The position numbers were made by a program, and so were the translations under genes. Below are positions 1,988-42,312 of a DNA stretch of 42,312 bases, in pieces (position 1 is the stretch's first letter; each line of letters begins with the position of its first letter). The stretch comes from a virus. The notes under the pieces were generated by a model. The model did not search any database. It worked only from the letters and a program-made list of their open reading frames with translations, and had not been told where the DNA came from. Where the stretch lies: positions 1-42,312 of IMG/VR virus record IMGVR_UViG_3300031228_000015; one strand, 5' to 3'.

Positions 1988-2227
1988 ATGAGCCATCACG
2001 ACAGGGTAATGATCACATTCTTCGCCCTCGCCCTCGCCGCCTGTATCGCCGCCATGGGCTGGGCGCAGCTCGCCGTGCGCCACCGCCGCCTCAAACGCGC
2101 CCTCCACGCCCTGCGCAAGGATCGCGATGGCTTGCGCAGGGCACTGTGGGAGAATCGCGGCGTCGAGGATGACGATATGGGAGGGGCCATCGATGCGGCA
2201 TTATGTAGCAAACGCACCAATGCGTAG
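1988..2227 (+). CDS. Small membrane protein; its last 10 codons read into the left end of the transposon
   Basis: ATG at 1988 after GAAGGGA. TM segment ITFFALALAACIAAMGWAQLAV. The ORF crosses the IS boundary at 2196. After conceptual excision it would end ...GGAIDG-TGA. Confidence 0.55.
   Translation: MSHHDRVMITFFALALAACIAAMGWAQLAVRHRRLKRALHALRKDRDGLRRALWENRGVEDDDMGGAIDAALCSKRTNA
2188..2220. repeat. Left TSD (2188-2195, CATCGATG) plus left terminal IR (2196-2220)
   Basis: 2186-2220 is the exact reverse complement of 5245-5279 (35 bp). The outer part is palindromic, so it also reads as a direct repeat. Confidence 0.85.
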
Positions 2228-2288
2228 ATGGTTATCCATCTGCGCGGTGGCGGGTGTCATCGTTTGTGGGGCAAGTGAGGCGCGGGCA

Positions 2289-3254
2289 CTAGGTGGCATA
2301 CCCGGGATAGTCGCTATTGGCCCGCAACACGAGCTTGTCACCAAAGGGCGGGCTATCGAGGTCTATCAGGCCATCATCGCGCCTTGTGTCGATCACGTCG
2401 AACAGGTGAGCGGTAAACCTGAGGCGCTTGCTCAAAGCCGTCTTGTATTTGGCAACCGTGTAGAAGCCAATTTTGACAACACTGGGCGGCGTTTCCCCGC
2501 TATTCTCACAGGAGCTTCGCCGTTCCAGCTCATCGCCGGGGAACAGTATTGCATCCTGCCACGCGATCTTGGCAGACCGGAAGTGCTTAATCGTTTCGTC
2601 CAAGTGTGCCCTTGGGTTCTCTCCGAACGCCATCGACGCAAAAAAGCTGACATCCAAGGCAGGCGTCTTTCCGATGTTCTTGACGACGTAGCGAATATGA
2701 AAATGCGGTTGCTCGTTTACCATCCTGAAGCCGATGACGTCCGTTATCTTGACGGTGATCCATGCTCGAAGTTGGGAGTCCACCCCGGCACGTGCGATCT
2801 TGTTGGCTTCCTGGCCAGCCTCGGCGGCAGCAATAGCAGCCTGAGTGGCGTTCTTGGCTTCATCGGCCATCGTCTTGGCGTGGTCGGCAGCCTTAGCGGT
2901 CGCCTCAAGCGTTTTCTTGACGATAGCGGCCACGTAGATGCTCACGCCCGTAGTGACGACAGCCGCAAGCGCCATGACCAACGCCCAAAAAGCCATTTCT
3001 TCTTGGGCCTCAAGGTCGCGCTGGGAGTGGGTTTGGCCGTTCTCGGTTACTGGATCGCGAAGCGCGCCCTCGATTTTGACAGCGGCTTCGGTGATGGCTT
3101 CTCTAACGGCAACCGACTCCGCTTCTGGATCAGCTACCTCGGATTGCTGGCCAGTGGCTTGATCGGCGCTTGCGGCTTTGTCTTGGCCGTAAGCAGCTTG
3201 GCATAGCGCTAATCCTGTAAATGCAGCGAAGACACCCCAATTGCGCTTAAACAT
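2289..3254 (-). CDS. Secreted/membrane-anchored protein of unknown function (transposon cargo)
   Basis: 321 aa. Signal-peptide-like N-terminus MFKRNWGVFAAFTGLALCQAAYG, then an acidic region and a TM helix AFWALVMALAAVVTTGVSIYVAAIV. An Ala-rich helix and a beta-rich C-terminal domain (YVVKNIGKTPALDV) follow. A same-phase antisense ORF (2127..3206) was judged spurious. Confidence 0.6.
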   Translation of the reverse strand: MFKRNWGVFAAFTGLALCQAAYGQDKAASADQATGQQSEVADPEAESVAVREAITEAAVKIEGALRDPVTENGQTHSQRDLEAQEEMAFWALVMALAAVVTTGVSIYVAAIVKKTLEATAKAADHAKTMADEAKNATQAAIAAAEAGQEANKIARAGVDSQLRAWITVKITDVIGFRMVNEQPHFHIRYVVKNIGKTPALDVSFFASMAFGENPRAHLDETIKHFRSAKIAWQDAILFPGDELERRSSCENSGETPPSVVKIGFYTVAKYKTALSKRLRFTAHLFDVIDTRRDDGLIDLDSPPFGDKLVLRANSDYPGYAT

Positions 3255-3439
3255 TGGACAAGAAACACCGCCGTGAATTTTCCCCGGCTGATCTTGTTCC
3301 TGATATTCGGCTCAGAGTCCATTACCCCAATGTCAGCGAGCTTTCCCACCAGTTCGGAGTAGGTGACGTTCCGGCGCTTCAGTTCCGCCTTCAGCATCCC
3401 CTTTACCCGATCTTCCCATTCCTTCTCCGCTACCGGCAT
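3209..3439 (-). CDS. DUF6471-like small HTH protein (putative regulator; transposon cargo)
   Basis: 76 aa. KGMLKAELKRRNVTYSELVGKLADIGVMDSEPNIRNKISRGKFTAVFLVQCLSAIG matches my recollection of the DUF6471 family. It overlaps the start of 2289..3254 by 46 nt. Confidence 0.65.
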   Translation of the reverse strand: MPVAEKEWEDRVKGMLKAELKRRNVTYSELVGKLADIGVMDSEPNIRNKISRGKFTAVFLVQCLSAIGVSSLHLQD

Positions 3440-3543
3440 CGTCTCGCTCCATGATGAGAAATATCATCATACGCGATGCATTTGCCCTTTACAACAGTGC
3501 ATAATGTCATTATCTAGAGTGCATAAGCACTGGAAACGATGAC

Positions 3544-4503
3544 ATGGCACAGCACTTTCTCCTCTCCGCCAAGGCTCGCACCCTCTCCCTCAAGGCGGTT
3601 TTCCGCATGGGCGAGGATGCCGCCTATCAGGCTTTCTGTGAGATGCGCTGGCCCGAAACCGAGGGCGAAGCGGTGTGCCCGCGTTGCGGCTGCACCGAGC
3701 ATTACAATCTTTTAACCCGCCGCAAATTCAAGTGCGTAGCCTGTCACCACCAGTTCAGCGTGACGAGTGGAACGATCTTTGCTTCGCGCAAGCTGTCGTT
3801 CACCGATCTGCTGGCGGCGATTGCGATTTTCGTGAACGGGGCGAAGGGGATTTCCGCGCTACAGGCGAGCCGCGATCTGGACGTGCAGTACAAGACCGCT
3901 TTCGTGCTGTTCCATAAGCTGCGCGAGGCGATGGCCCGCGAACTGGCTGACGCCAAGCTCAACGGCACGGTGGAAATCGATGGGGCCTATTTCGGCGGCT
4001 ACGTGAAGCCGGAGAACCGCAAGGAAGATCGCAAGGACCGCCGCCTTGTCGCGAACCGTTCGGGCAAGCGCCAGTGCGTCGTCATCATGCGCGAACGCAA
4101 GGGTCGCTCGCTTCCCTTCGTTGTCGCCAACGAGGGCGATGCCGTTCCCTATGTCCGCGACCACGTTGGCACCCTCGCCACGGTCTGCGCGGACGAAGGC
4201 AGCGGTTGGGATGCGCTCCATGCCGGTTGGGATACGCGCCGGGTCAACCACTCGGTTGCGTTCATGGACGAAGGCGTGTGCACCAATCAGGCGGAGTCGT
4301 ATTTCAGCCGCCTTCGCCGGATGGAAGTCGGAACGCACCACCACATCGCCGGGCCGTATCTCTACAGCTACGCTGGCGAGGCTGCTTGGCGCGAGGATAA
4401 TCGCCGCGTGGACAACGGTTCACAGGCGATGACGCTGACGGCGGCTGCGATGGCAGCGCGGGTTAGCCGGAATTGGAAAGCGTATTGGCAGCGCGCGGTC
4501 TAA
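3544..4503 (+). CDS. IS1595-family DDE transposase
   Basis: 319 aa. N-terminal MAQHFLLSAKARTLSL and zinc-ribbon CPRCGC...CVACHHQFSVTSGTIF are typical of IS1595-family transposases. The DDE-type body contains VEIDGAYFGG...NQAESYFSRLRR. Confidence 0.9.
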   Translation: MAQHFLLSAKARTLSLKAVFRMGEDAAYQAFCEMRWPETEGEAVCPRCGCTEHYNLLTRRKFKCVACHHQFSVTSGTIFASRKLSFTDLLAAIAIFVNGAKGISALQASRDLDVQYKTAFVLFHKLREAMARELADAKLNGTVEIDGAYFGGYVKPENRKEDRKDRRLVANRSGKRQCVVIMRERKGRSLPFVVANEGDAVPYVRDHVGTLATVCADEGSGWDALHAGWDTRRVNHSVAFMDEGVCTNQAESYFSRLRRMEVGTHHHIAGPYLYSYAGEAAWREDNRRVDNGSQAMTLTAAAMAARVSRNWKAYWQRAV

Positions 4504-4566
4504 GTCATTGAAATCGACTCACTCTTAATGCTTGAAATTCTTGAGTTTTTCACTATATCGCATCCC

Positions 4567-5076
4567 ATGGATAGGTCTGTCGCCATCGCAAACGAGTTTC
4601 TCCGGAAACCCGGCGGTGAGTCGCTTACGCAGATGCAGCTCCAAAAGCTGGTCTATATCGCGCATGGATGGAAGCTTGGCTTGTTGGGCCAGCCTCTGAC
4701 GACCGATGAACCGCAGGCGTGGGCCTATGGGCCCGTTTATCCCGACCTTTATGACCATACGAAATTCTTCGGGCGGGGGGCGATAGGCCGGGAAATTACT
4801 CCCGACGATGACGAAGCGGTTCGTTTCTTCACTGACGCTCGCAGGAGAAATGTGCGCCCTTACCGTGCCGAACTCGACGCCAACGAGCGTCAGATTATCG
4901 ATCAGGTTTGGAGGCGCTACGGAAAACTAAGCGGCGCGCGACTGTCCACGTTGACGCACCAACCTAACACACCCTGGTCGGACACTTACGACGGCGCACG
5001 CAATCGCGTGATCCCGCAGGACGAAATCCGAAACCACTACGTCGAACTGGCTGGCCGTGTCCGAGCGGGAGCTTGA
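4567..5076 (+). CDS. Panacea (DUF4065/SocA-like) antitoxin-domain protein with no adjacent co-directional toxin gene
   Basis: Motifs LTQMQLQKLVYIAHGWKLGLLGQPL, AWAYGPVYPDLY and LSTLTHQPNTPW fit the Panacea domain pattern. Start taken at ATG 4567 (MDRSVAIANEFL); an upstream ATG at 4528 is also possible. Confidence 0.75.
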   Translation: MDRSVAIANEFLRKPGGESLTQMQLQKLVYIAHGWKLGLLGQPLTTDEPQAWAYGPVYPDLYDHTKFFGRGAIGREITPDDDEAVRFFTDARRRNVRPYRAELDANERQIIDQVWRRYGKLSGARLSTLTHQPNTPWSDTYDGARNRVIPQDEIRNHYVELAGRVRAGA

Positions 5077-5218
5077 TCGCGTTGTCGAGCGTTTCGACAA
5101 CGCGGGCCATCTGTGCCAGCGCCTCTTGTGTGCGGAGCATTTCACCAGCGAGGGCGGCGCGGCGCTTCACCAAGCCATCGGTTAGGTAGTCTGTCATCGC
5201 CTGCGATACATAGCGCAT
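4964..5218 (-). pseudogene. Possible 5' remnant of a small coiled-coil protein gene
   Basis: The first ~50 aa (MTDYLTDGLVKRRAALAGEMLRTQEALAQMARVVETLDNAIKL) look protein-like. The last ~35 aa are Arg/Gly/Cys-rich and run antisense through the 3' end of 4567..5076. Confidence 0.25.
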
Positions 5219-5244
5219 AAATGACGATGACGACTATCCGCACG

Positions 5245-5277
5245 TTGGTGCGTTTGCTACATAATGCCGCATCGATG
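5245..5277. repeat. Right terminal IR (5245-5269) plus right TSD (5270-5277, CATCGATG)
   Basis: Reverse complement of 2188-2220, read directly. Confidence 0.85.
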
Positions 5278-5475
5278 GCTGATGAATCTGATAAGAAATT
5301 GGCCGCAGCTACGACACCCCATGACGAAAAACTTATTGAAACGCTTTGCGACGCTTTGATGATCGCGCTGCCTTACGTCGAAATGGCTGAGCACGATGAT
5401 ATCTACAAGCCCGGCGCCGTCCGGGCCGTTGTCAGAAAAATGCGCCACGCGCTCACGCGCGCACAATACCTCTAA
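5275..5475 (+). CDS. Hypothetical protein (66 aa), last gene of the plus-strand arm
   Basis: The ATG at 5275-5277 is formed by the last 3 nt of the right TSD. Translation: MADESDKKLAAATTPHDEKLIETLCDALMIALPYVEMAEHDD... An in-frame upstream ATG at 5221 lies inside the IS end. The 3' end overlaps the convergent gene 5472..5768 by 4 nt. Confidence 0.5.
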   Translation: MADESDKKLAAATTPHDEKLIETLCDALMIALPYVEMAEHDDIYKPGAVRAVVRKMRHALTRAQYL

Positions 5476-5768
5476 TCCCCCGAACACCCACCAAGCACCG
5501 CCAGTGCCTCGCGCAAGGCCCCGCGTAGCTCGATCGCCTTGGCCGCCAGCAGGTCCGCCGCCTGCACAGCAGAAACCCCGCCCTGCCACCCGCGGCCGCG
5601 CTCGCTTTCGATCGTCGCAGGTTCCGCCGGCACCTGATCCGGGCTCACACACGCCACCGCCACCGGCCGATCCACCTCCACCGTGCGCACCTCGATCCCC
5701 GGTCGCGGGCTTGCGCAGGCGGCCAGCGACCATAGTGTCGCCCACAACAGAATCATCCTGGCGCGCAT
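5472..5768 (-). CDS. Lipoprotein, o-spanin candidate
   Basis: ATG at 5768 lies 6 nt after GGAGGG. Signal peptide with lipobox MRARMILLWATLWSLAAC. The mature part is Pro/Val-rich (EVRTVEVDRPVAVACVSPDQVPAEP) with a C-terminal Cys. It is the last gene of the minus-strand lysis arm. Confidence 0.55.
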   Translation of the reverse strand: MRARMILLWATLWSLAACASPRPGIEVRTVEVDRPVAVACVSPDQVPAEPATIESERGRGWQGGVSAVQAADLLAAKAIELRGALREALAVLGGCSGD

Positions 5769-5916
5769 CACAAGCCCTCCGAAGTAAACAAACCCCTAAT
5801 GAAAATGCGACGAACCGTTGTCGATTGTGCTTGCCGTATACGCACATTGCGCGCATACGGGCCTTGTCAGCATGGAGTTGACCGGGCGCCTCGCCGATCA
5901 GGGGCGGAGACAAAGA

Positions 5917-6138
5917 ATGGAAAAGAAGTTCACCACTTTTCGCAGCCGCTTCGATCCGGACGTAACTTGCTTCCAGAGCAACGACTACGTGGGCCTGCTG
6001 CGAGCGATCTGCTGCAACTCGGTCACCGGCTATGTGATCGATGGGCGAAAGACGAAGGGTGAAGACATCATCAAGGTTCCATCCCATGCCGCCGATGCTG
6101 TAGCCGACCATCTCGGCCGCATGGGATGGACTCGCTAA
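5917..6138 (+). CDS. Hypothetical 73-aa protein (upstream gene of an opposite-strand two-gene moron)
   Basis: ATG at 5917 after GGAGA. Lower-GC segment. No family recognised; a HicA-like resemblance at the C-terminus is too weak to call. Confidence 0.45.
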   Translation: MEKKFTTFRSRFDPDVTCFQSNDYVGLLRAICCNSVTGYVIDGRKTKGEDIIKVPSHAADAVADHLGRMGWTR

Positions 6139-6389
6139 ATGTATTGCCGATGGGAGTTCCGCGAACTGTGACCAACCATCCGAACCGATCGCGCGGGGGG
6201 CAATCCCTCCCGCGCAATCCTTCGCCAGCGGAAGTGAAGGCCGCGCGGGGGGACGCCGGGCTAACCCAATCCGCCGCCGCCGCGCTAGTTCACACGTCGC
6301 TACGCAACTGGCAGCAATGGGAGGGCGGCGATCGGAAGATGCATCCGGCATTTTGGGACCTGTTCCGCCTGAAAACCGCGCAACCCTAA
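6126..6389 (+). CDS. XRE/YiaG-like HTH DNA-binding protein
   Basis: TNHPNRSRGG...PSPAEVKAARGDAGLTQSAAAALVHTSLRNWQQWEGGDRKMHPAFWDLFRLK matches a widespread small HTH family (WQQWE-G-R-M motif). The true start may be GTG at 6168 (MTNHPNRS...). Confidence 0.7.
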   Translation: MDSLNVLPMGVPRTVTNHPNRSRGGQSLPRNPSPAEVKAARGDAGLTQSAAAALVHTSLRNWQQWEGGDRKMHPAFWDLFRLKTAQP

Positions 6390-6829
6390 AGCCCCTCCAC
6401 CATCAGCAAGGCATCGCTCACCGGGCACGCCGCCGCATCGCCTGGCACGCTTCGCGCCGCGCTTTCCCGCAACCCCGCGATCGTGGCGGCCGATGCCTGG
6501 TTCGCCTCGCGCGCACGGGCAAGCTCGACTTCGGCCGCGGCACGCCGTCGCACGCCTTCCGCCGCCAGAGCGCGCACGCGGGCGCTCTGTTCGTCCAGCG
6601 CCGCCAGCGCGCGCTCCAGCGACGCGGCCGTCACTTCGTGCGCCGCCAACGCGATCGCGGTTTTCATCTGAGCATCAAGCAGGTCCTCCCGTGCCCAGGC
6701 CACACGCAGCATCTGCCATCCGGCAAACGCCACCAGCGCGGCGATCAGGATCATGCGCCAGTGCCGCACAACGCCGGCCACAGCCGCCTTCGCTGTGGGC
6801 GCGGCGATCAGGCTAAGCCCCGGTATCAT
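6386..6829 (-). CDS. i-spanin (Rz-like) candidate
   Basis: 147 aa. N-terminal TM (ILIAALVAFAGWQML) followed by a long Ala/Arg/Glu coiled-coil region. Lies directly downstream of the holin-like and endolysin genes. Confidence 0.55.
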   Translation of the reverse strand: MIPGLSLIAAPTAKAAVAGVVRHWRMILIAALVAFAGWQMLRVAWAREDLLDAQMKTAIALAAHEVTAASLERALAALDEQSARVRALAAEGVRRRAAAEVELARAREANQASAATIAGLRESAARSVPGDAAACPVSDALLMVEGL

Positions 6830-7148
6830 CGGCCTGCTCCCGGTGAATGTTGGTATCGATTTCCACGAATTCGCCCAGGCGCGCCTTCATCGCGTTCGCC
6901 TGCGTCGCGATCAGCACCACGCCCATCACCATGCCGATGCGCAGCCATTCGCTGTAAAGGATCACCTCGCGCAGTAGGGCCGCAGACGCCTGCCGGGGCG
7001 GCCACCACAGCAGCGCGATCACGGTGAAGCCTTCCACCGCCACGCCCAGCAGCATCCCCCAGCACATCAGCGCGCGGATCTGCCGGGCGTTCATGTTCAG
7101 CGCATAGCGCACCGATCGGGCGATCCACCCGAATGCCCAGGCGAACAT
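6813..7148 (-). CDS. Holin-like membrane protein
   Basis: Internal ATG at 7148 (MFAWAFGWIARSV...). Contains 2-3 hydrophobic helices (LMCWGMLLGVAVEGFTVIALLWW, IGMVMGVVLIATQ). Position is immediately after the endolysin gene. Confidence 0.5.
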   Translation of the reverse strand: MFAWAFGWIARSVRYALNMNARQIRALMCWGMLLGVAVEGFTVIALLWWPPRQASAALLREVILYSEWLRIGMVMGVVLIATQANAMKARLGEFVEIDTNIHREQADDTGA

Positions 7149-7204
7149 CGCCGCCACGGCGCCAGCGGCGCGGCGCGGGCGCGAAGGTGGGGAATCCCCG
7201 CCGG

Positions 7205-7795
7205 TCACAGCAACAGCGCCTTCATGTGGCCCAGCCACGCCTTGCGGTCGGCCAGCCCGTTCAGCCCGCCGTTGATCTTGCGCGTCACGCCCAGCACATC
7301 GTCCCGATCCGCCAGGGGGGAGATGCCGCGCGATTGCCAGTAATCGCACGCCACCCACAACCCGATCGAAGGCGCCGCCGCCAGTTCGGGATGCCGTTCC
7401 AGATCCAGCCCCAGCCGCCGCCCCACCGTCCGGTAATTATCGCGGCCGGTCAGCTGGATCGGGCCACGCCCCTTGTACCGCCGCCCGTCGCCCACCTGAT
7501 CGTTGCCCAGGTCCTCGCGCCCCTCATAGGCCGCGCCGCTGGCCAGTTCCTCCATCCACTTGAAGCCGCCCGATTCGTGCGCCAGCTGCGCCATGAAATG
7601 CGCCAGGCGCAGCGGCGAATCGAGCAGGCCATAGCCGTGCAACCGCACGTTGCCCGCCAGCGCCAGCTCCGCCGCGATTTCCGGCTTCGCGCCCGCCGCC
7701 GCGAACAGCGCATGCAGCGTGTTCCTGCCGATCTGCCCGTCCACCGTCACCGCCAGGCGCAACTGCATCCGTTCGATATCGTCCCGATCCATCAT
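7205..7795 (-). CDS. Endolysin, glycoside hydrolase family 19 (chitinase-like)
   Basis: AHFMAQLAHESGGF...YKGRGPIQLTGRDNY...LWVACDYW are GH19 hallmark motifs. Confidence 0.85.
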   Translation of the reverse strand: MMDRDDIERMQLRLAVTVDGQIGRNTLHALFAAAGAKPEIAAELALAGNVRLHGYGLLDSPLRLAHFMAQLAHESGGFKWMEELASGAAYEGREDLGNDQVGDGRRYKGRGPIQLTGRDNYRTVGRRLGLDLERHPELAAAPSIGLWVACDYWQSRGISPLADRDDVLGVTRKINGGLNGLADRKAWLGHMKALLL

Positions 7796-8876: not shown

Positions 8877-10163
8877 TCAGTCAGGTATCGGAATGAGATG
8901 CGGCCGCTGTTCGAATGTGAAGCCCGCAGGCGGCTTGCCTTGTGTCCCGTCGCCGAAGTCCGCGGCCGAACAGTTGAGCAGATTGTCGATACAGTTCCCT
9001 TCCCACCGATCGCGGATCGCCGGTTCCCATGCTTCCATGTAATCGGCGTGGAAGGTCGATCCGGCAGGTTTGCCCGCCATCGCGTCGCTGCTGAATATCC
9101 ACGTCCCCGGTGTGTCGCCGGGCAGGATCGCATAAGCGAAGATCAGTGAAAGCTGAGGGATCAGGTAGGGATGCGAGGCGGGGCAGTGATACCGGCCTGA
9201 ATTCGCATCGCGCGACATATAGGCGAGATGATCCTGGTGGTTCGCGCTGTCGAGATTGCGCCCGTTCCAGCAGTCGGGCGCCTCGATCCGGGCATAGATG
9301 TGGCTGGTCGCGCGGCACCGCTCGGCAACCCCGGCCAGCGTCGGATCGCTGAACCCTGCGTTGCAGTCAAAGCTGACATGCGGCGACTGCAGGTGACCCT
9401 GGACGTAGTTCGTGCCGAAGATCGCCCGCAGTCCCACCGGTATGCCGACGCAGCCCTTGTGCGGCGCACGGGTGCACTCAGGGTCGCTCGCCGGGAGGCG
9501 CTTGTAGTAGTTGGAGATATAGTCCGGCACCACGACTTGACCGCCCGCGGGCTTGCTCAGCAGCGCCGGTAGCCAGTAGGCCGAGCGATTGAGAATATCG
9601 CCCTGGCAGGTACTCCCGCCTGCCGTGCGCAGGCTCGCATAGTCTGACGCCGCGTTCGTCCCGGTGTTGCCGAAGAACATATGCAGGTGCGACTTGCCCG
9701 GCTGCTCCGGGTACGCAATCGGATCGTCATAAGCCAGGTGGCTGACGTTGCAGATGAAGCGGAACGCGCCGACAACATCAGGGGCGGCGGAGCCCGGAAC
9801 CGGCACTTGCCGGACGTAGGACGCCAGGTCGAAGGTGGAGACAATCGGGACGATATCGTCCACCGTCAGCGGTGTGAACTCGGGTATCGGATGTTCGTCG
9901 TGGTCAGGATCGGTGGGCGGTGCAGGATCGAGGATCGCGATGGCTTGTTCCATCAAGTCTACTGTCACGCGGGCTTCGGCCACGCACTTGTCGGCCTGCT
10001 TTCGCTTGCAGTGGTATTCAGCCCGGTCGGCCGCATTCTCCGCGTCCTTGACCGCCGGGTAGGCGGCAGCGGTATCCTGCGCGGCGGCCGGGGTGCATGC
10101 GGCCGGCGCGAAGAGGAAGCAGGCCGCAGCGGCGCCCCACGCAAGATAGTGCCAGTGGATCAC
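8877..10163 (-). CDS. Secreted DUF1996 domain protein
   Basis: Signal peptide MIHWHYLAWGAAAACFLFAPAACTPAAAQ. DUF1996 motifs: GAFRFICNVSHLAYDDPIAYPEQPGKSHLHMFFGN, NRSAYWLPAL, APDCWNGRNLDSANHQDHLAY, HCPASHPYLIPQL, FHADYMEAWE. Confidence 0.8.
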   Translation of the reverse strand: MIHWHYLAWGAAAACFLFAPAACTPAAAQDTAAAYPAVKDAENAADRAEYHCKRKQADKCVAEARVTVDLMEQAIAILDPAPPTDPDHDEHPIPEFTPLTVDDIVPIVSTFDLASYVRQVPVPGSAAPDVVGAFRFICNVSHLAYDDPIAYPEQPGKSHLHMFFGNTGTNAASDYASLRTAGGSTCQGDILNRSAYWLPALLSKPAGGQVVVPDYISNYYKRLPASDPECTRAPHKGCVGIPVGLRAIFGTNYVQGHLQSPHVSFDCNAGFSDPTLAGVAERCRATSHIYARIEAPDCWNGRNLDSANHQDHLAYMSRDANSGRYHCPASHPYLIPQLSLIFAYAILPGDTPGTWIFSSDAMAGKPAGSTFHADYMEAWEPAIRDRWEGNCIDNLLNCSAADFGDGTQGKPPAGFTFEQRPHLIPIPD

Positions 10164-10210
10164 AAACCTTCTCCCTGGATCGTGGAAAATAAAAGATCGG
10201 AAATCAGCCG

Positions 10211-11038
10211 TCAGACTCGGCCAAGCACGACAATCGAACCGCCGGTCAGGTTTCCGCCCGTGGTGTTCGCCACTCTCAGCGCATCGATTGTCGATCCCGA
10301 AGCAACGAACAGCCGGGTTTGCTCTGGCCCGTGCGAGATTCCGACCGGCGGCGTCCCGTCGCCCATATTATTGAGAATAGGAACAACCCCCGAACGCGCC
10401 GAGCTGCTGCCATCGCCGAGAGGGAAACCCGATGAATCCGATTCCACGCCGCTCGAATTGATAAGAACATAGTCGCCCGTGGTGGAATAAAAGCTGCTGC
10501 CCCCATCGGTGCTGACCCGCACCATCCTGGTACCCGCGACCGAGGCCGGAATGTTCCGGCAAATGACCATCAGTTCGCTGTAGCCGCCAAGGCCGGTAAA
10601 ATCGACGTTCGCCACGTCACCCGAATGTGTCCAGCTTCCCGCCAGATCCCACCCCACACCGGCTGAAAAAATCGCCCACGCCGATCCGCTCCACACATAG
10701 AGCGCGTCTTCGTCCTGCACCCAAACCTGCAGGCCCTCGTGCCGTGCCCCAATCGGGATGTCCGCCCCATCCGAATCGTTGCCCGGCACGAAGGTCCACG
10801 CCGTGCCGGTGTAGATGGCGATCTTGTTCGCCTTGCCCACCCACGCCCCGGTGGGCGCGGCGCCCACAATGTACACGTCGCCATCCGCAGGGCTCCCCGG
10901 CGGGGTGTCCAGTCCCCGGTCGATCGCGCCTTTCTGCAGCGCGATCAGCATGTTCAGCGCTTCGTTGTGCAGCACCTCCGCCTGCGCCGGCGGGGGCGAA
11001 GGGACATAGGGGATGCCGAGATCGGGGGAATTCGCCAT
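10211..11038 (-). CDS. DUF2793-type tail fibre protein
   Basis: N-terminus PAQAEVLHNEALNMLIALQKGAI...PPGSPADGDVYIVGAAPTGAWVGKANKIAIYTGTAWTF matches the DUF2793 pattern. Lies next to the host-specificity gene. Confidence 0.75.
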   Translation of the reverse strand: MANSPDLGIPYVPSPPPAQAEVLHNEALNMLIALQKGAIDRGLDTPPGSPADGDVYIVGAAPTGAWVGKANKIAIYTGTAWTFVPGNDSDGADIPIGARHEGLQVWVQDEDALYVWSGSAWAIFSAGVGWDLAGSWTHSGDVANVDFTGLGGYSELMVICRNIPASVAGTRMVRVSTDGGSSFYSTTGDYVLINSSGVESDSSGFPLGDGSSSARSGVVPILNNMGDGTPPVGISHGPEQTRLFVASGSTIDALRVANTTGGNLTGGSIVVLGRV

Positions 11039-11112
11039 GCTTTTTCACACGCTCCGTTAACGTTTTCTCAACCTTTTGTCGTCAAACCGGGGATTGAAAG
11101 GAGTACATCGTC

Positions 11113-11274
11113 ATGAACAATTTCAAATCCGGCCAGCAGGTCATTCACCAGCTTCGCGGCCCCGGCGTGATTGAAACCGTCACCCCGGCGGGCAACCTCC
11201 ACATCCGCCTCGGCAACGGGGCTCTGCACCTCGCCTCGCCCGTCATGGTCACCCGGGCCGCAGCGGCGGTCTGA
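11113..11274 (+). CDS. Small opposite-strand hypothetical protein (53 aa) inside the tail module
   Basis: Not in the track. ATG at 11113 lies 10 nt after GAAAGGAG. Translation: MNNFKSGQQVIHQLRGPGVIETVTPAGNLHIRLGNGALHLASPVMVTRAAAAV. TGA at 11272-11274. Confidence 0.45.
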   Translation: MNNFKSGQQVIHQLRGPGVIETVTPAGNLHIRLGNGALHLASPVMVTRAAAAV

Positions 11275-11278
11275 GGGC

Positions 11279-13591
11279 TCACACCACCGCGCGGCGCGGA
11301 TGCCCGCGCCCGCGGATGCCGCTGATCTGGCACGCGTCCACCGTCACCGGATTGCCCGGCGTGATCCCGTCCGCCGTCTGCTCCGCCGCCGAATAGGGGA
11401 AGGTCGGCGCGGTCGTCGCGATCGTGCGCACGGCACTGCCCGCCACGATCACATCCAGCTCGTACCGTTCGCTTTCCTCGGCCAGCGGCGGATCGCCGCC
11501 GAACAGTCCCGCGCCCGCGATCCGGCTGCGCCGGTGGCATGTGATCGTCAGGTTGTTCGATCCGTCGCGCCTGCCGGTCACATGCACCGGTGAAAGGGGT
11601 CGCCGCCCTTCGCCCGTGCCGGTGAAGTCCTGCACGGCGGTATCGGCCTCGCTCGTCAGCACCGAAACCGGCTTGTACTGCCGCTCCGCGTTCCAGTCCC
11701 CCGCGCCGAAGTCGCTGCGCCCCAGCGTCTCCGGTTCCAGCAGCACGAACACTTCGTTCGCGCCATGGGTGCCAATCGCGTGATCGGTGCCCAAGCGCCC
11801 GCGCAGCCGATCGGAAAGCTCGTAGGTCTTCGGGGCCACCAGCGTCGCCGTGGCGAACTGGAACACCTCGCCGCCCTGCCCGTTCGCGGGACCTAGCCAC
11901 GCGGCGTTCGCCCCGTTCAGCACCGCCGATTCGGTCACGCTTTCCAGCTCGTCATCGGCGTTGTCCAGCACCACCGTCACCGGGTTGCCGCGATCCCAAT
12001 AGTCTGCCGGCCCGGAAGGCAGCGCCACGGCCACGTCGCCGATCGGCGCACGCACCGCCACGCCGCTCATCTCCGAATAGGTCGTGCCGCCATCAGACGA
12101 TCGCATGATCGTCGCCCCGCGCCACCCCGCATTGGCCGCCGTCACCGCCCAATAGAAGCCCGAATCGTCATCCGATTCGCGCACGATCGGCATGTCCATC
12201 AGCACCAGGCGCGTGGGGCCGGGCAGCTTCAGCGGGTTCGCCGGCAGCGTGCCCGGCGCGCCCGCCGCGTTGGAACGGTAGGCTTCGGGATCGGCGTTGC
12301 GCGCCTCGATCTCTATCACCCCGTTCGCCCCGCGCGTCGCCCGCGCGATCGCGAACGGCATCACCGTTTCGGCCATCGGCAGGCCCACCACGTCGCCCGC
12401 CTGCAGCCGGTGCCAGCGATCGGAAACCGGGAACCGCGCCAGGCGCCGCGCCGCCCATGCATCCCACAGCAGTGTATCCGCCAGTCTCCGAGCCTCGGTG
12501 GCGTCCAGCACCACCGGCAGTTCGCGCGATACGTTGTTCGACGCCGCGCCCAGCTGGCGCGCTGCACGCTGCGCGTTGACCTGGTAATCCAGCGCCGGGT
12601 CCGCGTATGAAACCGCCGCCTCGCGCGGCATGGCCATGGCCTGCTGCGTTTCGATGCGCATCGGCTCCTGCGCCGGCGCGCCCCCGGCCGCCGCGCCCAT
12701 GTCGTCCGCCGGGATCGTCGCCTTGATCGATCCGCCGCGGCGCACGCACCGCACCTGGCCGCCCTGCTCGGCCAGGTCGAAGTTGTACGCCAGGCCCAGC
12801 GGCTCCAGCGCGCCGAAGCCCGTCACCTCGCGCGCGATCACGAAGCCGCGGCCCGTATCGTTGATCTGCGAAACCGTGATGTCCCCGGTCGCCAGCCCGG
12901 ATCGCGTGGCGATGTCGCGTATCCAGTCGGCCACCAGCGATGAAGGGTGCCCCTCCACCTCGAATTCCAGATTGGGCAGCACATTGCCGAAATCCGCCAG
13001 TTGCAGATCCTTGATCACCACATAGGCGCTGTGGCGGTACGCTGGGGTATTGCCCACCCCTTCCTCGGCCTCGATCGTCGGGTCGATCTGCTGCGTCCCG
13101 TTGCCCTGGTAAAACCGGATCGTATCGAACACCGCGTGCGTGCCGCTGGCGCGCGTCGCCACCATCCCCACCAGCGGCGTCGGCGCGGCGGGGGCAACCG
13201 TCGCTTCGTCCAGGTCGAATATCTTTTTCGAATTCGCCCATATCCGGCGCACCATCGTGCATTCGCCGTCCCCCAGCAGGATCGCCACGCTGGTGGAATA
13301 ACTGTACTCCTTCACCGTGGGGCCGCCCTTGCCGCCCTTCTTCTTGCTGACGTGCTCCACCAGCCCGGTCGACCAGATCAGGTTCCCCGCCAGCCGGTTT
13401 TTCGCGCCATAGATCAGCGGGATCGGTGTGCCGTAAGTGGACGATGTGACCGAAAGATCCTTCAGCCGCGGCCCCTCCACCTTCGGCGCGAACAGCGCCT
13501 GATCGATGAAGCTGCCCACGGTCGAACCGATGAACCCGCCGATCGGGCCGCCAAGCGCGGTGCCCACCGCACCAAGTACCAGCGATGCCAT
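11279..13591 (-). CDS. Host-specificity/baseplate protein (RcGTA g15-like)
   Basis: 770 aa. The Gly-rich N-terminus MASLVLGAVGTALGGPIGGFIG...GPRLKDLSVTSSTYGTPIPLIYG...KKKGGKGG...YSYSTSVAILLGDG is typical of the GTA g15/phage host-specificity family. Confidence 0.85.
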   Translation of the reverse strand: MASLVLGAVGTALGGPIGGFIGSTVGSFIDQALFAPKVEGPRLKDLSVTSSTYGTPIPLIYGAKNRLAGNLIWSTGLVEHVSKKKGGKGGPTVKEYSYSTSVAILLGDGECTMVRRIWANSKKIFDLDEATVAPAAPTPLVGMVATRASGTHAVFDTIRFYQGNGTQQIDPTIEAEEGVGNTPAYRHSAYVVIKDLQLADFGNVLPNLEFEVEGHPSSLVADWIRDIATRSGLATGDITVSQINDTGRGFVIAREVTGFGALEPLGLAYNFDLAEQGGQVRCVRRGGSIKATIPADDMGAAAGGAPAQEPMRIETQQAMAMPREAAVSYADPALDYQVNAQRAARQLGAASNNVSRELPVVLDATEARRLADTLLWDAWAARRLARFPVSDRWHRLQAGDVVGLPMAETVMPFAIARATRGANGVIEIEARNADPEAYRSNAAGAPGTLPANPLKLPGPTRLVLMDMPIVRESDDDSGFYWAVTAANAGWRGATIMRSSDGGTTYSEMSGVAVRAPIGDVAVALPSGPADYWDRGNPVTVVLDNADDELESVTESAVLNGANAAWLGPANGQGGEVFQFATATLVAPKTYELSDRLRGRLGTDHAIGTHGANEVFVLLEPETLGRSDFGAGDWNAERQYKPVSVLTSEADTAVQDFTGTGEGRRPLSPVHVTGRRDGSNNLTITCHRRSRIAGAGLFGGDPPLAEESERYELDVIVAGSAVRTIATTAPTFPYSAAEQTADGITPGNPVTVDACQISGIRGRGHPRRAVV

Positions 13592-35224: not shown

Positions 35225-35698
35225 CTAGAATGGAATGTCGTCGTCCAGATCGTCGGCCGCGCCGCCCTGGGGTTGTCCGCCGGCGCTTGTGCCGCCCGCT
35301 CCCGCGCCGCCATAGGCGCCTTCGTCTTCCGGCGGGGGCGGCCGGCCGCCTCCGGAACTGCCCAGCAGGCGCAGGATGGCGTCGAAGCCCGACAGCACGA
35401 TTTCGGTGGTCCACCGGTCGTTGCCGTCGCGGTCCTGCCACTTGCGGGTGCGGATCCGGCCGCGGATCAGTAGGTGTGATCCCTTGCGCACGTATTGTTC
35501 GGTCACGCCCACCAGGCCTTCGGAAAACACCACCACATTGTGCCATTCGGTGCGCTCGCGCTTTTCGCCGGTGGTGCGGTCCTTCCACTGCTCGGACGTG
35601 GCGAGCGAAAAGCGGGCGACCTTGCCCCCGCTTTCCATGGCCCGCACTTCAGGATCGCCGCCCACATGCCCTTCCAGCACCGCGAAATTCACGCCCAT
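35225..35698 (-). CDS. ssb: Single-stranded DNA-binding protein
   Basis: OB-fold N-terminus, Gly-rich linker and the canonical acidic tip DDDIPF. Confidence 0.95.
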   Translation of the reverse strand: MGVNFAVLEGHVGGDPEVRAMESGGKVARFSLATSEQWKDRTTGEKRERTEWHNVVVFSEGLVGVTEQYVRKGSHLLIRGRIRTRKWQDRDGNDRWTTEIVLSGFDAILRLLGSSGGGRPPPPEDEGAYGGAGAGGTSAGGQPQGGAADDLDDDIPF

Positions 35699-40159: not shown

Positions 40160-40399
40160 ATGCCCGTGCAATACATCGATGTTCCCTCGCGCCGGATCGT
40201 CAAGGGGCTCGTACGCCCTACGCGGGCTTACCGCTCGATCCTCGGCCAGATCGGCCGCGCCATGCGCGCCGGGGCGGAAGTGGATTTTTCCGCCGATCGC
40301 CTCGACGGGATTCAGGAAGGTGATGTGGTGGAGCGCGTGACCGTCACCATCGGCGATGTTCCGCCGCGTCCCGAACGGGCGGAAAGGACGCCGAAGTGA
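40160..40399 (+). CDS. Hypothetical protein (79 aa)
   Basis: ATG at 40160. Its stop overlaps the next GTG (GTGA). Confidence 0.45.
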   Translation: MPVQYIDVPSRRIVKGLVRPTRAYRSILGQIGRAMRAGAEVDFSADRLDGIQEGDVVERVTVTIGDVPPRPERAERTPK

Positions 40400-40869
40400 C
40401 TGGCCGCCGCCTCAATATCGTGCCGATCACACTGCGCGAGGCGAGCGCATTCATCACGCTGCACCATCGCCATAACAAGCCACCGCGCGGGTGGAAATTC
40501 GGCCTCGGCATTGAAGTGGATGGTCGCCTGGTCGGCGTTGCCACCGCAGGGCGCCCTGTCGCCCGGCACTTCGATGACGGGCGAACACTCGAAGTCAATC
40601 GCACCTGCACCGATGGCACACGCAACGCCAACAGCAAACTTTATGGCGCGGTCTGGCGCGCGGCAAAGGCGATGGGTTACACGCGCTGCATCACCTACAC
40701 CCAGGCAACCGAGACTGGCGCATCGCTGCGCGCGGCGGGGTGGCGGATGATCAAGGAACTTGCCGCCCGCAAGTCGTGGGCCGAGTCCAGTGGGAAGCTG
40801 AAGGCGCTCCGCGACCCTGTTGGCAATGGCGGCGTTACCCGCCAGCTGTGGGAAATATCATGCGCCTAG
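40396..40869 (+). CDS. XF1762-family protein (GNAT-fold-like, function unknown)
   Basis: IVPITLREASAFITLHHRHNKPPRGWKFGLG...GRLVGVATAGRPVARHFDDGRTLEVNRTCTDGTRNANSKLYGA..RAAKAMGY.R.ITYT...E.GASLRAAGW matches my recollection of this prophage-associated family. Confidence 0.7.
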   Translation: MTGRRLNIVPITLREASAFITLHHRHNKPPRGWKFGLGIEVDGRLVGVATAGRPVARHFDDGRTLEVNRTCTDGTRNANSKLYGAVWRAAKAMGYTRCITYTQATETGASLRAAGWRMIKELAARKSWAESSGKLKALRDPVGNGGVTRQLWEISCA

Positions 40870-41801: not shown

Positions 41802-42312
41802 ATGTTCGATTTTTCGCAGATCACCGAAGTCCGCCTCGCCGCCGGGGCGCACGAATCGGCCGCCTCCGGTATGTGCTTCATGGAAATGGTCGCCTGGTTC
41901 AACGGTGAACAGCACAGCGATCGTCCGCAATGCGCATGCCCCGTGCTCGGCCGTTTCGGGATCAAGCTCAACGATGCTATGCCCGGCGATCTTCGTGACC
42001 GGCTGCTCAAGCCCGTCGTCCCCCTGATATCCGGCACGCGCGGATCGCTCGATGACCAGAAGCGCCGCGCGGAATTCCTGGTACTGTGGGCGGTCAACAG
42101 GGTACTGCCCGTGGTCCTGCGCATGCGCGGGCAGGAGGCCCGCGCGGTGGCTTGCGAAAACGCTCGCACCCTCGCGGAAGCACGCCAGGCCGCCGCCGCC
42201 ACCTACGCCAACGCCGCCGCCGCCGCCGCCACCTACGCCAACGCCGCCGCCGCCGCCGCCACCTACGCCAACGCCGCCGCCGCCGCCGCCACCTACGCCA
42301 ACGCCGCCGCCG
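41802..42312 (+). CDS. 5' part of the Ala-rich tandem-repeat protein gene (open at the window end; continues at 1..453)
   Basis: ATG at 41802 after AAGGAAAGGA. The N-terminal domain MFDFSQITEVRLAAGAHESAASGMCFMEMVAWFNGEQHSDRPQCACPVLGRF...LNDAMPGDLRDRLL runs into (AAAATYANAA)n with no stop. The frame agrees with frame 1 at the window start under 34-, 64- or 94-nt overlap. Confidence 0.7.
   Translation, partial: MFDFSQITEVRLAAGAHESAASGMCFMEMVAWFNGEQHSDRPQCACPVLGRFGIKLNDAMPGDLRDRLLKPVVPLISGTRGSLDDQKRRAEFLVLWAVNRVLPVVLRMRGQEARAVACENARTLAEARQAAAATYANAAAAAATYANAAAAAATYANAAAAAATYANAAA
42190..42312. repeat. Coding 30-bp tandem repeat (four TYAN units) at the window end
   Basis: Read directly. 42219-42312 is identical to 1-94. 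Confidence 0.95.

Follow-up and report, generated by a model that had tools for sequence, protein, structure and literature searches.

The window, a stretch of 42,312 nucleotides (nt) covering positions 1 to 42,312 of the IMG/VR virus record IMGVR_UViG_3300031228_000015, represents a siphovirus-like tailed phage, with terminase, portal, major head, tape measure, tail, endolysin, primase and methyltransferase genes lying mostly on the minus strand. Near its left end, two small plus-strand open reading frames (ORFs) of the phage are separated by a 3,074-bp unit that has one intact IS1595-type transposase gene between terminal inverted repeats (IRs; IRL and IRR for left and right) and is flanked by 8-bp direct repeats, here read as a target-site duplication (TSD). 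The locus is laid out as follows.

1988..2227, plus strand: upstream phage ORF, no Pfam family
2188..2195: left copy of the TSD, CATCGATG, read directly
2196..2220, plus strand: IRL, CGGCATTATGTAGCAAACGCACCAA, with imperfect pairing onward to 2232
2289..3254, minus strand: membrane-protein gene, 321 aa, no family
3209..3439, minus strand: DUF6471 gene, 76 aa (Pfam, 1e-30), a backbone gene divergent from the transposase gene
3440..3543: divergent control region, from repeats and an alignment of 10 relatives; putative function
3544..4503, plus strand: IS1595-family transposase, 319 aa, full length (Pfam, NCBIfam, alignment)
4528..5076, plus strand: Panacea-domain (SocA-like antitoxin) gene (Pfam), likely true start ATG 4567
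4964..5218, minus strand: remnant of a coiled-coil (CC) gene, the "truncated ORF" of the first-pass annotation, 84 codons (protein alignment)
5245..5269, minus strand: IRR, perfect complement of IRL (repeat analysis)
5270..5277: right copy of the TSD, CATCGATG, read directly
5274..5475, plus strand: downstream phage ORF (MADESDKK...), its ATG rebuilt by the right TSD copy

The two ends of the unit are exact reverse complements over 35 bp (2186-2220 and 5245-5279), and a weaker inverted pairing reaches 47 nt at 89% (arms 2186-2232 and 5233-5279). Immediately outside both 25-bp repeats stands CATCGATG, which is its own reverse complement. The 25-mer CGGCATTATGTAGCAAACGCACCAA occurs at exactly two sites in the window, one per strand, also with 3 or 6 mismatches permitted, and did not occur in any of 100 shuffled sequences. 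The unit has a G+C content of 57.8%, compared with 66.4% for the remaining window, and is the lowest-GC 3-kb stretch of the window. The first-pass annotation had pointed out the 35-bp repeat, the 25-bp IRs, the 8-bp direct repeat and the visibly lower GC, all of which are borne out.

The product of the central gene matched DDE_Tnp_IS1595 (PF12762; 6.3e-37, profile positions 1-153 of 153) and Zn_ribbon_IS1595 (PF12760; 4.8e-14) in Pfam, and transpos_IS1595 (NF033547) in NCBIfam with 153 bits against a cut-off of 75. This hidden Markov model search confirmed, above the curated cut-offs, the earlier assignment of an IS1595-type transposase; its gene is the only transposase gene between the IRs. 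The ORF is single and uninterrupted and equals those of its relatives in length; its product shares 94% identity with a metagenomic copy and 88% with the transposase of Croceicoccus ponticola. The zinc-ribbon residues C45, C48, C64 and C67 are invariant in the alignment of relatives, as are the candidate catalytic residues D146, D217 and E251 among the 15 relatives aligned, and likewise R258.

In the literature, insertion sequences (ISs) of the IS1595 family, which includes the ISNha5 subgroup, have 8-bp TSDs, a zinc finger and the DDE_Tnp_IS1595 domain, and an N-terminal zinc ribbon is expected in every subgroup but IS1016. The term transporter IS (tIS), for IS copies with passenger genes, was defined on this family (Siguier, Gagnevin and Chandler, 2009), and ISNha5 is cited as a tIS with transcription regulators as passengers. 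The window element combines the DDE domain, the zinc ribbon, IRs with an 8-bp TSD and a single transposase ORF with four non-transposase ORFs inside its IRs. Regulator-like genes are among the latter, in that the DUF6471 protein was modelled as Xre-like, with fold matches that are not significant, and the CC family gave weak winged-helix matches. ISNha5-type elements of the ISfinder table are 3.45-7.9 kb long, have ends of the form CGGnnTT and 8-bp duplications, and encode a DDER/K transposase. The window element ends in CGGCATT and has the D, D, E and R residues, while its 3,074 bp fall just below that range. From these characters it likely belongs to the ISNha5 subgroup.

Relatives were collected with a 21-mer end core, which gave 5 IMG/VR contigs, and through transposase relatives, which added 13 more viral loci; exact-protein look-ups gave chromosomal copies, and a degenerate end pattern was run on GTDB genomes. 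Many of the GTDB end-pattern matches listed arise by chance, and only loci with protein homology were used. Other copies with the same ends, proposed earlier as a check, were thus recovered in IMG/VR, in chromosomes and in GTDB genomes. Neither GenBank phages nor PLSDB plasmids matched the complete element by megablast. The termini CGGnnTTATGTAGCA are common to the window element and 10 related insertions in phage contigs, chromosomes and plasmids, and the IRL-type terminus CGG(C/T)ATTATGTAGCAA is present in relatives. Each of these 10 insertions has its own perfect 8-bp duplication, different from the others and non-palindromic. The multi-gene units with such flanks, one of them at 7 of 8 positions, are:

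L013a: TSD CTATCTTC, 3,467 bp
L019/L020: TSD CATGATGC, 3,753 bp, glycosyltransferase-domain ORFs at both flanks
L022 (Croceicoccus ponticola): TSD GAATTTCA, 3,137 bp
L023 (Qipengyuania): TSD TGAAACT[G/C], a 7/8 match, 3,519 bp
L052 (Sphingomonas aracearum): TSD AGCGCCTC, 4,140 bp
L055 (Mesorhizobium): TSD CAGTTCCG, 4,065 bp
L094: TSD AAAATTTC, 4,306 bp
L129 (Phenylobacterium): TSD GATCATTC, 3,885 bp

The TSDs of related units are unrelated in sequence, and the conserved terminus always begins with CGG. Since this terminus is constant among relatives and the flanks are specific to each site, the element ends and the 8-bp TSD are settled, and the comparison indicates that CATCGATG is the target duplication and that the ends of the element lie where they had first been placed. 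The relatives measure 3.1-7.1 kb, and in those with transposases 57-94% identical, IRs and TSDs span the whole multi-gene unit. By these comparisons the entire 3,074-bp unit is the mobile element, which supports the earlier reading of its transfer as a whole into a phage genome, and the 8 bp fit the TSD size attributed to the IS1595 family.

Only in a more distant lineage, represented by L014 and Rhodovastum plasmids (about 53-55% transposase identity), does the left end adjoin the transposase gene, and the right end still lies beyond a second gene. In Rhodovastum atsumiense G2-11, two 100% identical copies of 1,596 bp, which contain the transposase gene and a 141-aa coiled-coil gene, occupy two plasmids (L175 4904-6499 and L176 4904-6499) with the TSDs GATCGATC and CGAACACG. 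As these identical copies have TSDs of their own, the family is active as a multi-copy IS.

Small plus-strand ORFs with no assigned function form a block past the lysis genes, and the insertion site is within this block. In the upstream ORF, 10 IS-encoded codons now stand in place of the final codon (...GGAID-AALCSKRTNA-stop versus the predicted ...GGAIDG-stop), and the predicted ribosome-binding site of the downstream ORF, GGGAGGGG (2177-2184), is now 3 kb distant from it. Removal of the element and one TSD copy gives GGGAGGGGCCATCGATGGCTGA, a Shine-Dalgarno sequence followed by an ATG that overlaps the upstream stop; in wider context the restored junction reads ...GATATGGGAGGGGCCATCGATGGCTGATGAA... 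(predicted uninterrupted junction, ...GGGGCCATCGATGGCTGA...; reconstructed form, GGGAGGGGCCATCGATGGCTGATGAA). The upstream ORF then ends in ...GGAIDG-TGA, and GGGAGGGG lies 6 nt upstream of the downstream ATG. The restored sequence reads as an ordinary coupled phage gene junction with a putative ribosome-binding site.

We consider it highly probable that the unit is an IS1595-family tIS inserted between two small coupled phage genes, with ISNha5 as its most likely subgroup. In this mechanism, the single DDE transposase would recognise the 25-bp terminal repeats beginning with CGG and would have moved the 3,074-bp unit into the junction of the two translationally coupled genes, duplicating CATCGATG. 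The conserved layout of the group is IRL, membrane-protein gene, DUF6471, divergent control region, transposase, variable slot, coiled-coil/winged-helix gene and IRR; the variable slot would be filled and emptied through recombination. The insertion is real and recent; the intact transposase gene together with the perfect IRs and TSD points to a recent event. The element itself is an ordinary member of a widespread alphaproteobacterial family of an already described kind, the ISNha5-like tIS of the IS1595 family. What is new here is the phage location, which is uncommon, and the finding that most of the "passengers" are conserved companions of the transposase.

One of these companions is the CC gene, which encodes 141-166 aa, lies beside the right end convergent with the transposase gene and was found at 45 loci. 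Its product belongs to no Pfam family and has an N-terminal coiled coil and weak winged-helix signals. It is the sole companion gene retained in the minimal 1.6-kb form and is thus a core IS gene, labelled merely as hypothetical in RefSeq (Rhodovastum). In the window, jackhmmer recovered the ORF at 4964-5218 as a member of the CC family, with homology limited to the first ~50 codons (~5068-5218; MRYV...LVKRRAALAGEM...LDNAIKL) and the C-terminal domain missing. The homology break at ~5068 abuts the stop of the Panacea gene at 5076, and nucleotides 5203-5269 are 78% identical to positions 8424-8490 of L019.

This truncation bears on the present activity of the copy. The window element is possibly, if somewhat doubtfully, a stranded non-autonomous relic, in which loss of the CC C-terminus disabled regulation or transposition and which is dead weight for the phage. 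Most relatives in which the CC gene was found have it at full length, it is the only non-transposase gene of the minimal multi-copy form, and ~50 of ~145 codons are left in the window. However, the transposase gene is intact and the two IRs and the TSD are perfect, as expected of a recent event, and host copies could supply the CC function in trans. Such a state would be compatible with an origin by transposition.

Several points weigh against the transposition of a tIS as set out above. First, the palindromic nature of CATCGATG makes the TSD ambiguous in the window copy alone, where it can equally be read as part of a longer IR, and 5 related units with both ends visible have no TSD (L006, L009, L013b, L014 and L015); we attribute these to later recombination between copies. 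The corresponding alternative, that CATCGATG is a palindromic extension of the IR and that the block arrived by recombination rather than transposition, is nevertheless very improbable, because at the 10 other insertions the sequence outside CGG varies by site and is directly repeated over exactly 8 bp, and because removing one copy of CATCGATG leaves a normal stop/start gene junction. Second, the empty site that had been predicted in related phages was not found: the exact empty junction (19-mer) is absent from IMG/VR, an 18-mer of the junction gave 28 metagenome matches that are all unrelated to the flanks, and both flanking phage proteins are without relatives in IMG/VR. When compared with phages by blastn, the left flank matched nothing and the right flank matched through a conserved endolysin segment only. 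Third, the element is shorter than the size range of ISNha5-type elements. Finally, the regulatory roles, the deletion discussed below and the present mobility of a copy with a truncated CC gene are what we infer rather than observe.

A different placement of the ends, in which the real IS would consist of the transposase gene with nearby ends and the outer 35-bp repeat would derive from a composite or nested structure or from a phage feature, is slightly less probable still. Typical IS1595 members are about 1 kb long, and in the distant lineage (L014, L175/L176) the left end lies ~75-100 bp upstream of the transposase gene. Yet a closer IR/TSD pair around the transposase gene, which had been named as the observation that would speak against the long unit, was looked for and is absent: with up to 6 mismatches allowed, the window contains no further IR-like site. 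Where transposase identity is 57-94%, the IRs and TSDs of the relatives always surround the multi-gene unit, and even the minimal form has the CC gene inside its right end. Chimeric joining of this metagenome contig through a repeated IS, a classic site of misassembly, is equally improbable, as both flanks are phage-like in composition, together with one TSD copy they form a coherent gene junction not expected of a chimera, and the contig ends overlap as in a circular genome.

We next turn to the cargo of the inserted tIS. The Panacea protein matched SocA_Panacea (PF13274) at 2.5e-23 over profile positions 1-112 of 113, a complete domain. With NCBIfam SocA it scored 79.7 bits, below the cut-off of 190, and is therefore not a SocA equivalog. 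No toxin gene adjoins it: the transposase gene lies upstream and the CC remnant and IRR lie downstream, where the only ORF is a 42-codon GTG ORF antisense to the CC remnant. Panacea genes are present at 5 other loci of the family set, and at least 3 of them (L011, L095 and L170) lie within the element beside backbone genes. At L011, L170 and an IMG/VR homologue, L177, the Panacea gene is followed by a partner ORF. The window protein resembles the PanAT and SocAB systems in its complete Panacea domain and differs from them in the missing neighbouring toxin gene and in its score below the SocA equivalog cut-off.

In the window copy, a Panacea antitoxin-toxin pair may once have filled the variable slot; one deletion would then have removed the toxin gene together with the 3' 60% of the CC gene, leaving behind an orphan antitoxin gene and the 84-codon CC remnant. 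Since the Panacea partner is absent exactly where the CC gene breaks off, one deletion would explain both, and from the sequence comparison we put the chances of such a single event at about even.

L177 (1-2226), the closest viral homologue of the Panacea gene with 52% identity, has the Panacea gene and, overlapping it downstream, an ORF of 150 aa whose product has transmembrane helices at the C-terminus; an integrase gene comes next. The arrangement looks like a pair of PanA and a membrane toxin at a prophage end.

Among the relatives, the variable region lies mainly between the transposase and CC genes and holds mostly uncharacterised ORFs, the recognisable content being Panacea genes (L011 and L170; L095, where it adjoins the CC gene) and one gene each of HicA-like and proteasome-like type. 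The left arm of other lineages carries a methylase-Mrr fusion or a GH113/DUF5648 protein. A Pfam search with 20 further cargo ORFs of relatives gave mostly no match, with proteasome-like, weak HicA and weak GNAT matches only. Because the DUF6471, CC and membrane-protein genes recur across relatives, the Panacea gene alone is clearly variable cargo in the window copy. The first-pass annotation had listed four passenger genes; the four ORFs inside the IRs stand, whereas the DUF6471 gene and the truncated ORF are not passengers and belong to the conserved backbone (38 and 45 loci, respectively). Its suggestion of defence or anti-defence cargo found no support in PADLOC, in which no defence model matched the element proteins (best E 0.001-0.008, to unrelated Cas models), and remains speculation.

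In one relative, L009, positions 3981-5642 of the left arm encode a 553-aa fusion of a DNA methylase and an Mrr-type nuclease domain, and the right slot holds a weak HicA-like ORF with a small partner ORF (6954-7499).

The DUF6471 gene lies ~100 bp upstream of the transposase gene in divergent orientation at 38 loci, that is, in almost all relatives down to ~45% transposase identity. An AlphaFold2 (AF2) model of its product (pLDDT 82) has a four-helix helix-turn-helix fold, and the best Foldseek matches were HipB, Xre, the N-terminal domain of TP901-1 CI (CI-NTD) and C.Esp1396I, a restriction-modification (R-M) controller, with TM ~0.6 and none significant (best E 0.26). We predict from this model a helix-turn-helix protein similar to Xre, HipB and C proteins.

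The protein encoded by the neighbouring gene at 2289-3254 begins with a signal-like segment, has a single predicted transmembrane helix and ends in a beta-sandwich; it had no match in Pfam, NCBIfam or PADLOC. Six database relatives were found, and remote homologues occupy the same position at 21 loci, sharing the motif R-D/E-L-x-A-Q-x-x-M-A-x-W-A and a transmembrane helix. The gene is fast-evolving and recurrent in the left arm, and is replaced by other genes in some lineages. Its AF2 model is poor (pLDDT 57), with an Ig-like C-terminal domain. Public gene callers start the gene at Met87 (235 aa, P0241). The signal-like N-terminus of the 321-aa form aligns with the L020 and L023 homologues, and the long form is therefore probably the true protein.

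Between the DUF6471 and transposase genes, a palindrome, ATGATGA-N6-TCATCAT, is located at the DUF6471 start (3451-3470), followed by two 22-nt direct repeats ending in AGTGCATAA (3483-3504 and 3505-3526), which place GTGCATA motifs 22 nt apart. A -35-like box reads TTGACA in relatives and TTTACA in the window copy, and the minus strand of the region has two promoter-like sites. The palindrome, repeat and box blocks are conserved at the DNA level among the 10 relatives aligned. The palindrome and the 22-nt repeats are candidate operators. By analogy with many IS and R-M control modules, the simplest reading would be a small repressor acting on a divergent promoter pair, in which the DUF6471 protein and/or the coiled-coil protein would regulate the divergent promoters through the palindrome and the GTGCATA repeats.

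Compared with known systems, the window element is like ISNha5 and other tISs in its single transposase with a zinc ribbon and DDE_Tnp_IS1595 domain, its IRs and 8-bp TSD, and its length of several kb through extra genes inside the IRs, small regulator-like passengers among them. It differs in its location in a phage genome with an orphan Panacea gene and in being slightly short for the ISNha5 size range, which is consistent with an internal deletion; in addition, the regulators counted as "passengers" would, by the present comparison, belong to the conserved backbone. It shares with the minimal two-gene relatives (the 1,596-bp Rhodovastum element and L014) related termini (CG[G/C]CATTATGTAGCA in those relatives), the 8-bp TSD, a homologous transposase (~53-55%) and a convergent coiled-coil gene beside the right end. 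Those relatives, multi-copy and identical, have no DUF6471 gene, membrane-protein gene or cargo slot, whereas the window copy has an extra left arm and a truncated coiled-coil gene. Tn3-family transposons reportedly carry toxin-antitoxin (TA) modules beside their transposition genes (Lima-Mendez et al., 2020). The window element is similar in having a TA-type gene beside the transposase gene, and Panacea modules recur in the slot of several relatives, but it has a transposase of another family, no resolvase or res site, a far smaller size and here the antitoxin half only.

A broader proposal, which we regard as rather unlikely, is that long IS1595 elements are mobile platforms built of four genes, for the transposase, the membrane protein, the Xre-like DUF6471 protein and the coiled-coil/winged-helix protein, in which the companions would serve the element through regulation, maintenance or exclusion and one or two exchangeable slots would gather conflict-type genes, such as Panacea- and HicA-like TA parts and the methylase-Mrr fusion; the orphan Panacea gene in the phage would then act as counter-defence against host TA systems or abortive infection. 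According to the literature, ISs are badly tolerated by phages, which are regarded as poor carriers of them. A clean and recent 3-kb insertion that carries genes, in a phage genome that looks complete, is therefore a useful, not unprecedented, example of accessory-gene pickup from hosts. The comparative result may outweigh the single insertion, as it describes a very common alphaproteobacterial IS group with conserved uncharacterised companion genes. Through this companion-gene set (DUF6471, the ~145-aa coiled-coil protein and the fast-evolving membrane protein), DUF6471 acquires a genomic setting and a role that can be tested.

Transposase relatives number at least 7,996 at E <= 1e-30 among 8,000 candidates scored. 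The closest named ones among the matches listed belong to Croceicoccus, Qipengyuania, Novosphingobium and Allosphingosinicella; every relative on a plasmid is alphaproteobacterial, and the plasmid matches include no Nitrobacter record. GenBank phages contain no close transposase relative, with two matches at 25-30% identity. Because the named relatives are sphingomonads and the plasmid relatives are alphaproteobacterial, the donor and the phage host are probably Sphingomonadales, with an Erythrobacteraceae-like donor.

Three related elements (L022 4763-7899, L023 4660-8178 and L172 ~3300-7500) lie beside rpmH-rnpA-yidD-yidC in different Erythrobacteraceae-like genomes, and the L172 element interrupts a Mg-chelatase/ComM-like gene. 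The TSDs of L022 (GAATTTCA) and L023 (TGAAACT[G/C]) are almost the reverse complements of each other. These observations suggest either a target that is used repeatedly or an old insertion followed by inversion. At L013, family-type inverted repeats bound a 2.9-kb unit (9063-11941) that contains a coiled-coil gene and further ORFs, has no transposase gene or TSD and lies 870 bp from a complete element; the unit may be a non-autonomous derivative.

As for the phage genome, its ends (1-264 and 42189-42312) lie within a tandem repeat of 27-30 nt (unit GCCGCCGCCGCCACCTACGCCAACGCC), and the first and last 94 nt are identical, so that the contig is probably a circularly closed genome with its closure inside the repeat. 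A scan of 10 window ORFs, which was not exhaustive, gave no integrase. Beside the insertion, a lysis block on the minus strand (5472-7795) comprises an endolysin gene (7205-7795; PHROG endolysin, 1e-50), a 147-aa ORF (6386-6829) and a 99-aa ORF (5472-5771) with a lipoprotein-type signal, LAAC; the latter two look like spanins by eye. Elsewhere in the window, the ORF at 40396-40869 has a weak Mom-family match (3.7e-5, below the cut-off), and positions 35225-35698 contain a clear SSB gene.

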